A stretch of DNA of 54,028 nucleotides, counting the filler, from Squatina squatina (taxonomy: Eukaryota): NCBI GenBank assembly GCA_031763465.1. It is 3 parts of 3 records of this genome, joined end to end, with 100 filler letters (N's around TTAATTAATTAA, not from the genome) between each part and the next. Parts side by side here need not be neighbours in the genome. Positions count along the whole stretch, not along the records: positions 39,737 to 54,028 come from JARFOE010000080.1; 2 more parts are not named here. One strand, written 5' to 3'. Made by a program: the position numbers and the translations under genes. Shown here piece by piece: positions 4,485-53,327 of this stretch. A model generated the notes under the pieces. That model worked only from the letters and a program-made list of their open reading frames with translations, was not told the DNA's origin and did not search any database. Within the stretch, counting starts at the first letter, position 1. The number at the start of each line of letters is the position of its first letter.

Positions 4485-5565
4485 CCTCTCCAGTAGTGAT
4501 TTAGATATCCAGTGATCGGAAACAGAAATCCTTGTACCTTTTCTCTCTCTAATGTAAGGGTGCCGTGAACAACTTCAGTACCCAACCTGTTGCCCCAGCT
4601 GAGACCAGTAAATATCATCAGGGTCAAACCTGGAGCCTTCTTGGTTGATATGGGCCTCAGTTCCACACCAGGCGATGCAACCACCAACTAAGCCATCCAA
4701 GCCCATGAATGACTATAATTTCTGACTTTCTTAATGGCGCTCTTTGCAGATTGAAGGCAACATGACATAGAGGAGAAGATAATATAGCTGATGTAAGACT
4801 GGCGGATGGGAACTGTCCCAGGTTTGTGTTACAAATTGCCATTTTTTTTTGCAACAAGCTACTGAGAAATACATAACATGCAAACAGTTAATGAACACAA
4901 GTCTTGCTCCATAATAACCTCCACATTCTCAACCTCAATCCACCCATACCCTGCACACTCCCTCCCTCCCACACCCATACCCCAAGAAAGAGCATCGTCG
5001 CAGGTAATAACCTTACAGAAATGTATGTTACTGACTTACTTTGATATGAGCCGCTGAGTCTGGGACAGTCTGAATCATGTCCTTTTGCTGAGCTACAAGG
5101 TGTAACAACAAGGCAGGCCTCGCAACTCCTGTGCCGAAGGAGAAAAGATGGAATTAGACCAATGGTGAGATGAAGTTCTCTACATGTGGAGCCGGGTGAA
5201 TTAACAGTGCAATATAATAAACAAACACAGCACAAACTGTGCCAGTCAATTTGGTGGCCAAATTTAAAGAGAACAGATTTAACTACAGAAACATATATTT
5301 GAAATGGCCAGAAGCTGATGATGTCAGTTATATTCTAGACTAACCTCAGCACACTGAGCTTTCCAATTTCATAAATAGTCCAATGACATCAGATGTTTTG
5401 AATAATGGAATTATTTTTGGTTAAGGAGCTTGTCCTATGAGTTTCTTTTAAAATGCATCAAAAACNNNNNNNNNNNNNNNNNNNNNNNNNNNNNNNNNNN
5501 NNNNNNNNNNNNNNNNNNNNNNNNNNNNNNNNNNNNNNNNNNNNNNNNNNNNNNNNNNNNNNNNN

Positions 5566-5705
5566 CGGGACCTCGCTGAGCACAAGTTGGCTGCTGCGTT
5601 TCCTACATTACAACAGTAACCATACTTCAAAAAGTACTTCATTGGCTGTAAAGTGCTTTGAGATGTCTGGTGGGCAGGAAGGACGCTACATAAATGCAAG
5701 TCTGT
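5566..5705 (+). mobile_element. DeuSINE 3' fragment (further tails at 1246-1292, about 9920-10095 and 34221-34252)
   Basis: ttggctgctgcgtttcctacattacaacagt...aagtacttcattggctgtaaagtgctttg...taaatgcaagt matches the tail of 28260-28377. Confidence 0.8.
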
Positions 5706-7115
5706 CTTTCTTCTTTCTTAATGTAAGTCATATATATAAAAATGTAATTATAAATTGAATACTTTAAATTGTAGGACTTAACTAAGAATTAATTTTCCAT
5801 AAACGTGTTCTTTTTATCTGCAAATCTTCACAAAGTTCAAATTTCTCATTGACTCAATAAGTAGAAGTCTCCACTTGACTCGAAGCTGACCAAGAAAACA
5901 GACATTAGGTAACACGACTGCTCAATGTTCCTTGGCACCATCCAGAGCTTTGAGTTGTTTTTCTGACCTTTATTGGCTGGCTGAATGTGGTAGGATGGTT
6001 ACTTGTCAGCTATACTGTGTGCAGATGTGACTGTCTAGATCTTAATATGCTCTGGAAGGTTTACAGCACTCACANNNNNNNNNNNNNNNNNNNNNNNNNN
6101 NNNNNNNNNNNNNNNNNNNNNNNNNNNNNNNNNNNNNNNNNNNNNNNNNNNNNNNNNNNNNNNNNNNNNNNNNNACACGCACAGTACAAATACAATGAAT
6201 AAACCATGCCACAAGGCGGTAGGACCCACCATCACCCAGAACTAATAATTAAATACGTGGATTATTAAAGGGTTACATGCTGAATTCACAAAACAGGTGA
6301 GGGGGATTTATGTCTAACAATTGCTGCGTCAGGGACTCTAAAAAGAATCTGAATTGAGTTAAAAGTCCATGCAGCATTGCCCTTTTAAGCCGTGGGGGCT
6401 TTCTTGCAACTGGTAGCAATCAGGCGAACGGCTGCAGTGGACAGGAAATCTAAAATTAGTTTTTACTACCTATAATAGAAGATTTACGGTATGGTTTAAT
6501 TTGTCGTCTCTGGGCTAAACTGTAAGGGAGAACTGAAACAGCCGGTCCTGGACATGGGGTCCAGCCTTCTCACAGACTCACTCTCAGAATCTGACCGCTC
6601 TCGCGGCCATCACACAATATCTATCCTGGCCGAGCACTCGCGACACCAACATCTTTCGCTTTTCCCGTCTTTTCTCTTTTTCAGGTTCTTTCACTCCTTT
6701 TCCCTACTCGCTTCTGCTCTTTTAACCCAACATCAGGCTCGGCTCGTTATTCTCTTGCTTGCATTTTCTGACAGGAAAGGGGAAATGTGGAATGAATAAA
6801 GGGAAGGGTCTTTGACATTGTTCATTTGGCGGTGCTGTCTCGATGGACGTAACGGTGTTGTTAAGTGCGATTAAAACCCGTAAAACAGATGAGTCCAAGG
6901 GGCAAGAAATTGAGTATAAATGACAAATGAAAATGTTACTTTAACAACCCGTTAACTCACTTTCATTTAACTCAATTCAACCAAAAACCCTTTTTCTCGG
7001 AACTCTCAATGTCTACTTGGAGATTACAAATGAAATTCATCTTTTTAAATTGATCTGCCTGTAGAGGCATGACAGGCTATCCTGGCTCAAGCCAATTTTC
7101 ACGAACTTGCGATGG

Positions 7116-47284: not shown

Positions 47285-47800
47285 TAAGGACACCAAAACT
47301 GTACACAATACTCCAGGTGCAGTCTCACCTAGGCCATATATAATTGCAGTAAGACATCCTTGCTCCTGTACTCAAATCCTCTTGTAATAAAGGCCAACAT
47401 ACGATTTGCCTTCCTAACTGCCTGCTGCACCTGCATGTTAGCTTTCAGTGTACTAGGTCACCCAGGTTCCTTTGCACATCAACATTTCCTAATCTACCAC
47501 CATTTAAAAAAAAACACTGCATTCCTGTTTTTCCAACCAAAGTGGGCAACTTCACATTTTTCGACATTATACTGCATCTGCCATGTTTTTGCCCATTCAC
47601 TTAGCCTGTCTATATTACTTTGAAGCCAGTTTCCATCCTCCTCACAACTCACATTCCCACCTAGTTTGGTGTCATCAGCTAACTTAGAAATGTTACATTT
47701 GGTCCCCTCATCATTGATATAGATTGTGAATTGCTGGAGCCCAAGCACCGATCCCTGCGGCATCCCACTAGTCAACCTGAAAATGACCCTTTTATTCCAA
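47285..47800 (-). mobile_element. CR1 LINE RT fragment
   Basis: SGMPQGSVLGLQQFTIYIND...ISKLADDTKLGG...DRLSEWAKTWQMQYNVEKCEVAHFG. Confidence 0.92.
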
Positions 47801-48376
47801 CTCCCAAAGCAGTAATATCGAAGCAAAATTTATGACTCTGATATAAGTTAGATCAATTGAATTCCTAAACAGGCTAAAGTACTCACAACAAAACAAAGTC
47901 TCATGCATTGATGGTATTTATCTCAGAGTCCAGAGAGAAAAAGGAGTTATGAAAGAGTCAATGACTACTGGGGAGAAGAGTCAATTGGAAACAAATCAAT
48001 ATGGGGATCGCTTTTTTTCAAATAAAAGAGGACAAAGCAAATGCAGGCAATTACAGATCTCAGCCCTACTCTCTAGAACTCCCTATTTAAACCCCTCTGC
48101 CTCGCTACTTCCCTGTCCACTTTCGTATCTCCCATCTTTTCAACAAAACTTTCCATCTCTTTTCCTAGCTCTTACACATGGTTCAGCAGCCATTGTTTTT
48201 CTCTATTTCCCCCACCCTTATCTATATAAAGATTTTCCTTTTTTTTTTATTTCTAATGGACAATCTATAGAAGTGTTTGCCACTCTCAGTTTTCACCTAC
48301 AATCTTCAGGCTTTTAAAATGCATATACTTGCCCTCGGCTAATTGCATCTTGCTGTTTCATTCTAATCTCTTTAAT

Positions 48377-49465: not shown

Positions 49466-49565
49466 NNNNNNNNNNNNNNNNNNNNNNNNNNNNNNNNNNN
49501 NNNNNNNNNNNNNNNNNNNNNNNNNNNNNNNNNNNNNNNNNNNNNNNNNNNNNNNNNNNNNNNNN

Positions 49566-49713
49566 GGAAGAAGAGTTGGAGAAACGTAAAGATGAGATTG
49601 AGCGTGAGGTACTCCGGCGTGTCGAGGAGGCCAAGCGCATTATGGAAAAGCAACTGTTGGAGGAGCTTGAGCGACAGCGACATGCTGAACTCGCTGCACA
49701 GAAAGCTAGAGAG
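49566..49713 (+). CDS. ARGLU1: ARGLU1 exon 2, 3' part (glutamate-rich coiled coil)
   Basis: EEELEKRKDEIEREVLRRVEEAKRIMEKQLLEELERQRHAELAAQKARE, followed by phase-0 donor GAG|gtaacg. The 5' end is hidden in gap 49466-49565. Confidence 0.95.
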
Positions 49714-52659
49714 GTAACGCTCGGTCGTTGGAAAAGCAAACAACAGTCCATGGCAAAACTTTCAGTCACAGTCAATGGTCACCACTTAATCTTCATCAGT
49801 AAATGGAATCAGAATGCATCTTTCCCTTTTCCAGCAGTTTGCAGTACCACAGCGTTGTTTTTTAAGTTGCATTTCTTTTGATGTACAAATCAACATTTCA
49901 TATTAGTTTATGATGCTGAATGTAGTATTTAATTAGGCTGCACAAAGCATTGTTCCGTGGCATTTGCTGTTTAAATTCAAGAACTTTGGGTGAAATAATA
50001 CTAATGTACCAGCATATCAATACCTGTTGAAAATCTTGTTCCACACTTAAGTTTAATTGAAACTTTTGCCATGGCTGCAGACTTTGAGTTACCTAACCAT
50101 GCAAAGAGCTTTTTTTTAAAAGGCTGTTTCAGGCTGGCAATTTGCCCTTCATTTGTGTAATCACTTTGTGTTCCATCCTGACTCCAAGTGGCTTAGTATT
50201 TCCAATGCAGATGTAGGTCAAAGTGGCTGAGCCTGCAGGACTTGCTTACGGCAAGTGGTTTATATTTGCTGTATATCCATCTTAAACTTAAATAAGATTA
50301 AAAAGGGGCAATTTTATCATGAGGTTTCTGACATCAGCCTCCATTTTATTCAAAGGATTCTTGTGGGACTGGAACTAGTCCTTTTATAACCCACCTCCAG
50401 CGTGTAGTTATAAGTACCTTTTCCTCCCAGGAGGGCTATTGACGACTGGTGAGTCCCTCCTTAATGTGAAGCTAGACATCCTGTATGTAATATGGTCACG
50501 GTACTGGAAGCTGAAAAATGTCTTTCTGTGAAATAGTGAAATGCTACTATATTGAATTTTGCCGACACTCATCACCTCTGGATTCTGAAATGAAGTACTC
50601 AGTCTTACAGAGCAGTGCAGTGCCTAGCTGTCCGTAGCAGCTTCAAAAATCTAACATTAACCCTTTGAGTATAAATAACTTAGATTNNNNNNNNNNNNNN
50701 NNNNNNNNNNNNNNNNNNNNNNNNNNNNNNNNNNNNNNNNNNNNNNNNNNNNNNNNNNNNNNNNNNNNNNNNNNNNNNNNNNNNNNNNNNNNNNNNNNNN
50801 NNNNNNNNNNNNNNNNNNNNNNNNNNNNNNNNNNNNNNNNNNNNNNNNNNNNNNNNNNNNNNNNNNNNNNNNNNNNNNNNNNNNNNNNNNNNNNNNNNNN
50901 NNNNNNNNNNNNNNNNNNNNNNNNNNNNNNNNNNNNNNNNNNNNNNNNNNNNNNNNNNNNNNNNNNNNNNNNNNNNNNNNNNNNNNNNNNNNNNNNNNNN
51001 NNNNNNNNNNNNNNNNNNNNNNNNNNNNNNNNNNNNNNNNNNNNNNNNNNNNNNNNNNNNNNNNNNNNNNNNNNNNNNNNNNNNNNNNNNNNNNNNNNNN
51101 NNNNNNNNNNNNNNNNNNNNNNNNNNNNNNNNNNNNNNNNNNNNNNNNNNNNNNNNNNNNNNNNNNNNNNNNNNNNNNNNNNNNNNNNNNNNNNNNNNNN
51201 NNNNNNNNNNNNNNNNNNNNNNNNNNNNNNNNNNNNNNNNNNNNNNNNNNNNNNNNNNNNNNNNNNNNNNNNNNNNNNNNNNNNNNNNNNNNNNNNNNNN
51301 NNNNNNNNNNNNNNNNNNNNNNNNNNNNNNNNNNNNNNNNNNNNNNNNNNNNNNNNNNNNNNNNNNNNNNNNNNNNNNNNNNNNNNNNNNNNNNNNNNNN
51401 NNNNNNNNNNNNNNNNNNNNNNNNNNNNNNNNNNNNNNNNNNNNNNNNNNNNNNNNNNNNNNNNNNNNNNNNNNNNNNNNNNNNNNNNNNNNNNNNNNNN
51501 NNNNNNNNNNNNNNNNNNNNNNNNNNNNNNNNNNNNNNNNNNNNNNNNNNNNNNNNNNNNNNNNNNNNNNNNNNNNNNNNNNNNNNNNNNNNNNNNNNNN
51601 NNNNNNNNNNNCTTGCAATTTGATTTTACACATTTTTATGGTTTGTGAAATTAACCTGCAATTTATTGCATTAATCTGTGACATTAAGTGAAGGAGCATT
51701 ACTGGTATTTTAACGATCTTTAGTTAGTCTGTTGGACTTCGACAAATTTTCATTTCAGAATGTTCTTATCTTCTCCCTTGAAGGGAGAATCGATCTATAT
51801 CTTTACATTTAATGCAGCCACAAGAGACATAAAGTGTATGAGGATAGAGTTAATTTACATGCCATTTTCATAAAATTATAAAACACCTTCAGATCGAGTT
51901 TATGTTATGAACAATGCTGTATTATAAACTGCATAATAGTTAGTGCTACCTTATTTTAATGTACTTCATTTAGTTTTATTTAAACACACACTTATTGAAG
52001 TTGTAAAGTATTCAAAGTGTATTGATGTAAGATAATGCCTATTGTATTATGATTTGCTTTCTAACTTGCTTGTATCCAGGTTATTTAAAGTTCCAGGGTT
52101 GATGAGTATCAGCTTGTAGCACATTACTAGTCATAGTAAGATTATTTTTCTTTTTCATGTCTGATAGTTTTGCTTGGCTTCATGTTAACATTGTCATCCT
52201 ACAGACAAAGGGCAAATTTCTTGGGCCATTCACAGTACTGAAAATGTAATTTTTCTGTTCTGGGCACATTGTGAAATTCTTGATTTTACGCACTTGGNNN
52301 NNNNNNNGTGTGTTTTGTTTGAATTTTGTAGTCGGGTAATCTGTAAATTTGCAAGCAATAACTGAAGTAGATTATTGTAAAATTGTTTGATCTCAAAGTC
52401 AATATAATTTATTGAGAAGTTATTCATTAGACCAGTAATAGCAAACAATGCCTTAATTTTGAGAAGTTACTAGATCACCAGTAGCTTGAATGGCACTTAT
52501 ATGATATGTTCTCAGCACAGAATAAATCATCATTTCTTCCTACTGTGAAAGATGCTCTCAGTTCCACAAGAGGATGGATTAAAGCTTGTATTTTTCACTA
52601 ACAGTAAATGTATCTTTCTTATTAATTGTTTGCCTTAGGAATGGTGATTTATATTGTTT

Positions 52660-52900
52660 CTTCTTACCGTAAACATCTGCATTCCTCAGCTCAGCCTACG
52701 TTGTGTTGTGTTTCTTGTTATTGGCTGAGCTGCTGATGCAGGTGTTGCCAAGCTAACAGTACAAATCAGTTTAAAGAGGAAGCTGGCGCATATGGCAGCC
52801 GAGGAGCACACTCTGCAGGACACTGGATGAGACAGTAAATATTCAACTTTTAATGCTGATTAATGGAGTTATAGGTAAAGAATACGTAGGTATTTGTAAT
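52660..52900 (+). promoter_or_regulatory. ARGLU1: ARGLU1 intron 2 ultraconserved-element homologue (splicing autoregulation)
   Basis: Lies in the 3' part of intron 2, about 350-580 nt before exon 3. The sequence gaggaagctggcgcatatggcagccgaggagcacactctgcaggacactgg...aaatattcaacttttaatgctgatt...ataggtaaagaatacgtagg resembles my recollection of the human ARGLU1 UCE. Boundaries are approximate. Confidence 0.75.
52819..52874 (+). other. ARGLU1: ARGLU1 poison (NMD-inducing) cassette exon, 56 nt
   Basis: Acceptor ctctgcag| and donor TAG|gtaaag. Spliced to exon 2 (phase 0) it reads GAC ACT GGA TGA, with the stop at 52828-52830. Alternative upstream AGs exist, so the 5' boundary is uncertain. Confidence 0.65.
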
Positions 52901-53243
52901 TGATGAGAGAAATCTATTCATTTTTTTTATTTTATTTTTTGTTAATGTAATTGGTAAAGTTTCTTTAGCAGTTGTATTATGTGTGGTTTAAAAAATAGTA
53001 ATATCAGCAAGCCTGACAAAAGAGGGTTTGGGTCATTGCTGTTTGAGGGCTGGGTGGGGTGATTTAAGTCCAGGAAGAATTTAACTAGGGGCAAAATAGT
53101 TCACATGAATGATTGGCAATAAAAACGGTGGCTGTCTTGGGCATAGTCAGTGGAAGGAAAGTATACTAAGGGAAGAAGCAGCTAGCCTAGATGCAATCTT
53201 AAAATTAATTCTCTCTATTAACATCTTCTTGTCTCCTATTTAG

Positions 53244-53327
53244 GAGGAAGAACGAGCTAAACGAGAAGAACTTGAGCGAATATTGGAGGAAAATAATCGA
53301 AAAATAGCAGAAGCTCAAGCTAAATTG
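53244..53327 (+). CDS. ARGLU1: ARGLU1 exon 3 (84 nt)
   Basis: Acceptor tcttcttgtctcctatttag and donor TTG|gtaagt. Translates EEERAKREELERILEENNRKIAEAQAKL, in phase with exon 2. Absent from the ORF track. Exon 4 was not found in the window. Confidence 0.95.

Follow-up and report, generated by a model that had tools for sequence, protein, structure and literature searches.

A candidate stop-carrying mini-cassette in intron 2 of Squatina squatina ARGLU1, a possible splicing decoy

ARGLU1 and the landmarks of its second intron

The window, by which we mean the whole stretch of 54,028 nucleotides of Squatina squatina DNA that was analysed (filler included), carries at its 3' end, on the + strand, a gene whose sequence identifies it as ARGLU1. 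The Pfam family PF15346 matches both pieces of the gene that are of concern here. The 3' part of exon 2 lies at 49567..49713 and ends, on translation, in phase 0 (Pfam ARGLU, E 1.2e-07 over its first 42 codons). Exon 3 is found at 53244..53327 (E 2.4e-05), also on the + strand, and aligns with positions 6724-6807 of an orthologous locus, L002, described below. The gene model is incomplete in the window because a run of 100 N at 49466-49565 takes the place of the end of exon 1, intron 1 in its entirety and the first bases of exon 2. Many further 100-N runs are present in the window. On the minus strand, 5' of ARGLU1, there is an open frame at 47494-47829, which looks like a decayed LINE reverse-transcriptase fragment.

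Intron 2 (49714..53243, + strand) is 3,530 nt long, of which 935 are N, as against 2,337 nt in L002 and 2,300 nt in human. Its human orthologue is regulated and retained, according to Pirnie et al. (PMC5389617). The known UCE alternative exon occupies 52819..52895 on the + strand, with competing donors at 52835, 52875, 52886 and 52890 (compare Table 1 of PMC5389617). In the window the UCE exon (52819-52874) has an in-frame TGA at codon 4, and in L002 the first stop is codon 15. Poly(A)-type hexamers (AATAAA or ATTAAA) occur at 52521, 52578 and 53118. A comparison of 49740-53300 with Rfam, at E values up to 5, gave 0 matches.

Metagenome contigs were scanned with an ARGLU1 exon 2 alignment, and at least 11 loci were obtained. 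Among the loci listed, L002 is the only one to span a vertebrate intron 2, and conservation as discussed here rests on one orthologue. L002 comprises 8,479 nt with a complete intron 2 and the UCE; it is read as amniote-like because of its intron length, similar to the 2,300 nt of human, and its UCE. A second locus, L001, probably from a bony fish, stops short of the site of interest, and the other 9 have no alignable intron. No orthologous locus was found in the viral contigs and prokaryote genomes searched.

Outside the UCE, the blocks common to the window and L002 are 49743-49766, 50057-50080, 50507-50549 and 52111-52154. Complementary arms at 49744-49766 and 50057-50080 would form a helix of about 23 bp (-25.3 kcal/mol) that begins 30 nt inside the intron and loops out about 290 nt, including the most pyrimidine-rich acceptor of the intron (49835). 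The arms are identical in L002 (4416-4438 and 4641-4664) and pair in the fold predicted for each of the two introns, folds of the whole region being not far above shuffles (17/100 and 10/200). L001 has a predicted helix (437-465 with 979-1006; -33.1 kcal/mol, a value reached in 0 of 300 shuffles) in which the 3' arm is the same and the 5' partner has changed. Judged from these sequences, the long-range helix is better conserved than the local hairpin at 50429-50461 considered further on.

The block at 50507..50549 (+ strand) is 84% identical over 43 nt to L002 5098-5139 (blastn E 2.6e-05) and serves as an alignment anchor. It has no Rfam match. A weak AG at its end is conserved, and L002 has a long U tract and CAG before the block. 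Further downstream lies a second candidate cryptic cassette with its donor (52080..52141, + strand). The cassette itself, 52080-52135, is 56 nt long and contains in-frame stops; its counterpart in L002 is 57 nt long (5613-5669, or 5613-5675 with the donor). The donor, ATA/GTAAGA, falls in an 18-nt block identical in L002 and is aligned in both MAFFT modes, the acceptor in one of the two. A branch-like CTAAC is seen at this cassette in the window. An acceptor-like site at 52184-52207 (TTAAC, pyrimidine tract, CAG/ACA; L002 5709-5732) has no obvious partner donor. The acceptor at 52205 aligns to L002 5730, and one as good was met in 0 of 200 shuffles.

The 18-nt candidate and its counterpart in L002

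Between the blocks 50057-50080 and 50507-50549, which are spaced 427 nt apart in the window (434 nt in L002), sits a candidate cryptic cassette of 18 nt (50431..50448, + strand). The downstream block begins 59 nt past it. Direct reading of the sequence confirms the acceptor and donor of the original prediction, with an AG ending at 50430 and GTGAGT at 50449-50454. The candidate 3' splice site (50408..50430) consists of a branch-like TTATAAG with its A at -18, a tract with 11 pyrimidines in 12 positions, and CAG. The candidate 5' splice site, CTG/GTGAGT (50446..50454, + strand like the acceptor), is predicted to pair with U1 at -9.2 kcal/mol, compared with -11.0 kcal/mol for the exon 3 donor. 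By the energy of its duplex with the U1 5' end, it is the best match among the 165 GTs of readable intron 2, and the acceptor is one of only two internal acceptors there with at least 11 of 12 pyrimidines. The weaknesses of the acceptor are a poor branch-like heptamer and an upstream AG-free run of only 14 nt; the corresponding run is only 10 nt at the UCE acceptor and 63 nt at the L002 counterpart of the cassette.

Translation from the phase-0 end of exon 2 gives GAG GGC TAT TGA, that is, E-G-Y-stop, with the TGA at 50440-50442, as had been predicted. Inclusion of the cassette would place this stop 90 nt before the exon 3/4 junction (exon 4 is outside the window and present in L002). By the usual rule, a stop leads to nonsense-mediated decay (NMD) when more than 50-55 nt separate it from an exon junction further downstream, and at 90 nt the cassette stop would qualify. 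What is found here, then, is paired splice-site consensus flanking a non-coding cassette that bears a premature termination codon (PTC), which is the sequence pattern of a decoy exon.

At the candidate's own strength, no other acceptor-donor pair within 27 nt exists in the 49,338 readable bases of the window, both strands included, and of 1000 shuffled versions of intron 2 only 5 contained one, with cut-offs set on the candidate itself. This uniqueness and the low count in shuffles indicate that the pair is probably more than chance. It must be noted that the cut-offs are post hoc, having been picked once the candidate had been seen, and that looser ones raise the count to 82, 325 and 516 per 1000 runs, the last two of which make pairs of this kind common.

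In three MAFFT runs, position 50431 falls within 2 nt of L002 4993 and position 50449 within 1 nt of L002 5010. The aligned site in L002 has a perfect TACTAAC, 11 of 12 pyrimidines, TAG, 17 nt (4993-5009) and then GT. These 17 nt read AAG TTA TAA, again with a stop in frame. The L002 donor, CAG/GTTGCC, is weak (-5.6, about eighth of 130 GTs). Conservation of the AG, the GT and the stop, proposed with the original prediction as a check on it, holds by position in this one orthologue: L002 has the AG, a GT 17 nt further on, and a TAA in frame. The letters are another matter. The exon bodies agree at 10 of 19 columns and differ in length (18 and 17 nt), and the similarity of the site to L002 is not significant (20, 74, 164 and 187 per 200 shuffles for four query spans, two of which were placed best elsewhere). 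The high conservation of exon and flanks that is expected of poison exons, such as those of SR genes or the ARGLU1 UCE, is absent at the cassette.

TACTAAC occurs in L002 in 2 copies on the + strand, the second being the exon 3 branch point, and in 3 copies on the - strand; 12 of 2000 shuffled introns contained it together with an acceptor. In a further null, which includes the bias of alignment, the L002 interval between the anchor blocks was shuffled and realigned 1000 times. When at least 11 of 12 pyrimidines were demanded, a collinear acceptor appeared in 20 of the 1000 realignments, an acceptor with a GT 14-22 nt further on in 8, a GT that equalled the real one in 0 and a near-perfect branch point in 2. 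With 8 of 12 pyrimidines, the corresponding counts per 1000 were 221, 91, 12 and 5. Because the aligned position in L002 has an acceptor, 17 nt with a stop, and a GT, the splice-site geometry (acceptor, 17-18 nt, GT, early stop) appears to be conserved in this one orthologue. It is the splice signals and the distances between them that selection appears to preserve, rather than the letters of the exon or the hairpin.

The predicted hairpin over both splice sites

It had been suggested that the cassette is folded inside its own hairpin. Indeed, the pairing of ggaggg (50430-50435) with ccctcc (50455-50460) comes out as the fold of lowest energy in each of five sequence contexts, and the longer ones add an A50429-U50461 pair, so that the predicted local hairpin covers 50429..50461 on the + strand. 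The proposed inward extension of the stem also exists (A-U, U-G, U-A, A-U, C-G), but with one G-U pair and not several. In the predicted fold both splice sites are occluded, as had been supposed, with unpaired probabilities of 0.00-0.15 for the AG and 0.03-0.05 for the GT in three contexts; the pyrimidine tract is mostly open.

The hairpin is no more stable than expected of its composition. In contexts of 45-150 nt, z is -0.59, -0.48, -0.07 and +0.10, and the hand-cut 31-nt core alone gives -1.93 (11/200). When the 3' flank is replaced, the fold is equalled or bettered in 131 of 1000 shuffles and by 106 of 892 random 26-mers from the window. The arms of the hairpin are not kept in L002, where the aligned stretch folds at -4.9 kcal/mol. 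L002 forms another predicted stem, between its pyrimidine tract and the end of the exon, which is likewise not above shuffles (z -0.62). The idea that structure gates the cassette is left unsupported by these results, since the hairpin is no stronger than shuffles, its arms are absent in L002 and L002 folds differently. In the lineage of the window only, the hairpin may damp the strong donor.

Known exons, rival readings and the decoy model

By testable features of its sequence, the cassette is a candidate decoy or poison cassette, and three known systems invite comparison. It resembles exons E4a-E4f of SF3B1, as described in PMC6097662, in being a short PTC cassette that is bounded by a splice-site pair and set in a large (more than 1 kb) intron of a gene for a splicing factor, where several elements of the sort occur together. 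However, E4a-E4f measure 29-56 nt, lie in blocks of high identity and are backed in that paper by junctions, U2AF eCLIP and minigenes, whereas the candidate has 18 nt, is conserved in geometry only (in one orthologue) and is known here from sequence. With the UCE exon of ARGLU1, as presented in PMC5389617, it shares the intron, an in-frame stop and what is proposed to follow, either retention or NMD. Ultraconservation and weak sites with competing donors mark the UCE exon, which begins about 2.4 kb downstream of the cassette, whereas the candidate has strong sites and unconserved letters.

Upstream UGC enhancers are characteristic of SRRM4-type neural microexons, and no TGC is present at -30..-3 in the window or in L002. 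In length the candidate, at 18 nt, would belong to the 3-27 nt class of such microexons, but these are usually frame-keeping and highly conserved (PMC7935315), while the candidate carries a stop and has 17 nt in L002. An SRRM4 microexon is ruled out by the in-frame stop and the missing upstream TGC. A recursive splice site is ruled out as well, there being no AG/GT at the junction, and so is a small RNA gene, there being no Rfam match. A minus-strand frame over the site, considered as a protein, had 2 phmmer matches of 32-36% identity, in 6 stretches each, and these are taken as unrelated.

Exons of 17-18 nt are often missed by standard mappers. A search of sequencing runs with 49720-50680 listed no RNA run; 23 runs from 8 studies hold 0.20-0.42 of its words. 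The C-termini of 129 proteins from assembled contigs were also compared (the best 120 of 164 longer matches and 9 of 9 near-length matches). The reading frame runs on into the intron in 84 of them and continues into exon 3 in 7; 1 behaves otherwise and 37 have no anchor. Among these proteins examined, 23 of the 84 that read through contain a peptide word matching the 5' arm of the long-range helix. None of the 129 ends in a microexon tail and none in the known UCE-exon tail, and because the latter is equally missing this comparison says nothing on the cassette.

The literature surveyed on the ARGLU1 intron and on decoy, poison and cryptic exons, some supplements and picture figures lying outside the survey, yielded no second ARGLU1 cassette or long-range helix. 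The cassette is not mentioned in the available text of Pirnie et al. (PMC5389617), the accessible parts of PMC5737842 and PMC13542418 say nothing more on its site, and the supplements of PMC10447433 gave 0 matches. A human list of 2,398 erythroblast cassettes in retained introns has 2 rows for ARGLU1, both of them UCE (58 and 112 nt; PMC12017769). Its source is the work of Parra et al., done with cells in which NMD was inhibited (PMC6097662). Among human unannotated junctions, PMC8091538 has 1 ARGLU1 row, a UCE donor. These UCE-only lists count mildly against use of the cassette in human.

The absence of the cassette from both human lists (PMC12017769 and PMC8091538) also speaks for a chance splice-like motif devoid of function, whose match in L002 would reflect an alignment pulled to a pyrimidine-rich patch. 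AT-rich introns abound in pyrimidine tracts, AGs and GTs; under the looser cut-offs 325-516 of 1000 shuffled introns contain a pair and the window's + strand contains 10-17; and the similarity to L002 at the site is not significant. Nevertheless, even with alignment bias included, the realignment null reproduces acceptor and GT in only 8-91 of 1000 trials, and acceptor and branch point in 2-5, and the cassette donor is the best in the intron. We regard a chance origin as unlikely, if still deserving of some weight.

The textbook strength of the L002 acceptor and the weakness of its nearby donor would be explained if the 3' splice site alone were conserved, serving either a longer cryptic exon, with weak donors at 50507-50549 or beyond, or an alternative terminal exon that closes at a poly(A) signal within the intron, and if the 18-nt donor were a lineage-specific gain. 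The conserved block with GTs 59 nt past the cassette and the AATAAA/ATTAAA hexamers further along the intron could be accommodated in the same way, and decoys with several donors are on record (PMC6097662). Yet the GTs of the conserved block are poor for U1 (-1.7 to -4.4 kcal/mol), and both species carry a GT at 17-18 nt. Conservation of the acceptor alone strikes us as quite improbable. Least probable to our minds is a structure-gated poison microexon, in which the hairpin would hide both sites and its opening would lead to inclusion and NMD. The hairpin is the predicted fold in five of five contexts, with AG and GT paired, and in L002, too, a stem is predicted to cover the pyrimidine tract and the donor. 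Against this, the window's hairpin does not stand out in context (z -0.6 to +0.1), 12-13% of replaced flanks fold equally well, the arms are unconserved and the aligned L002 stretch reaches only -4.9 kcal/mol, the L002 stem has other partners (z -0.62), and U1 pairing (-9.2 kcal/mol) could compete with the inner stem.

The reading that we prefer, and to which we would give about an even chance, is that the stretch is a cryptic stop-carrying mini-cassette acting mainly as a splicing decoy, with rare inclusion leading to NMD. This part of the original prediction, a cryptic PTC cassette or decoy, is supported by the unusually strong pair of sites and by the positional match in L002. In this decoy model, U2AF/U2 and U1 would bind the cassette sites. 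An exon of 17-18 nt may be too small to be defined efficiently unless dedicated microexon factors assist, and for that reason the complexes formed at the cassette would stall more often than splice. Microexons do need special machinery, as set out in PMC7935315. The decoy sites would tie up the ends of intron 2 and so favour retention, and occasional inclusion of the cassette would send the mRNA to nonsense-mediated decay.

There are precedents for both outputs. At the UCE exon, retention is furthered by complexes that do not lead to splicing, and inclusion of the exon sets off NMD (Pirnie et al., PMC5389617); Parra et al. (PMC6097662) generalised this to decoy exons, with six cassettes of 29-56 nt in SF3B1 intron 4. 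The cassette would add to the UCE exon as one of several internal decoys, comparable to E4a-E4f in SF3B1 intron 4. In human cells an upstream decoy would be at most secondary, because UCE deletions by themselves shifted the splicing of the Pirnie reporter towards the spliced form (PMC5389617). A broader proposal, possible but tentative, is that intron 2, instead of depending on the UCE as its one switch, is an ancient multi-decoy intron, from cartilaginous fishes to amniotes, in which a geometry-only microexon of 17-18 nt, the 56-57 nt cassette, the further acceptor and the helix of about 23 bp would tune retention together.

Detained introns are often exemplified by the autoregulation of ARGLU1, which published studies credit to the 3' UCE exon alone. 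Since the kind of mechanism is already known, the gain in understanding would be moderate. A stop-carrying microexon kept by geometry alone, if it is real, would escape phastCons-type screens and standard mappers. Extra conserved decoys in the 5' half of the intron, if they are confirmed, would extend the ARGLU1 model and offer precise, cheap targets for minigenes and antisense oligonucleotides.
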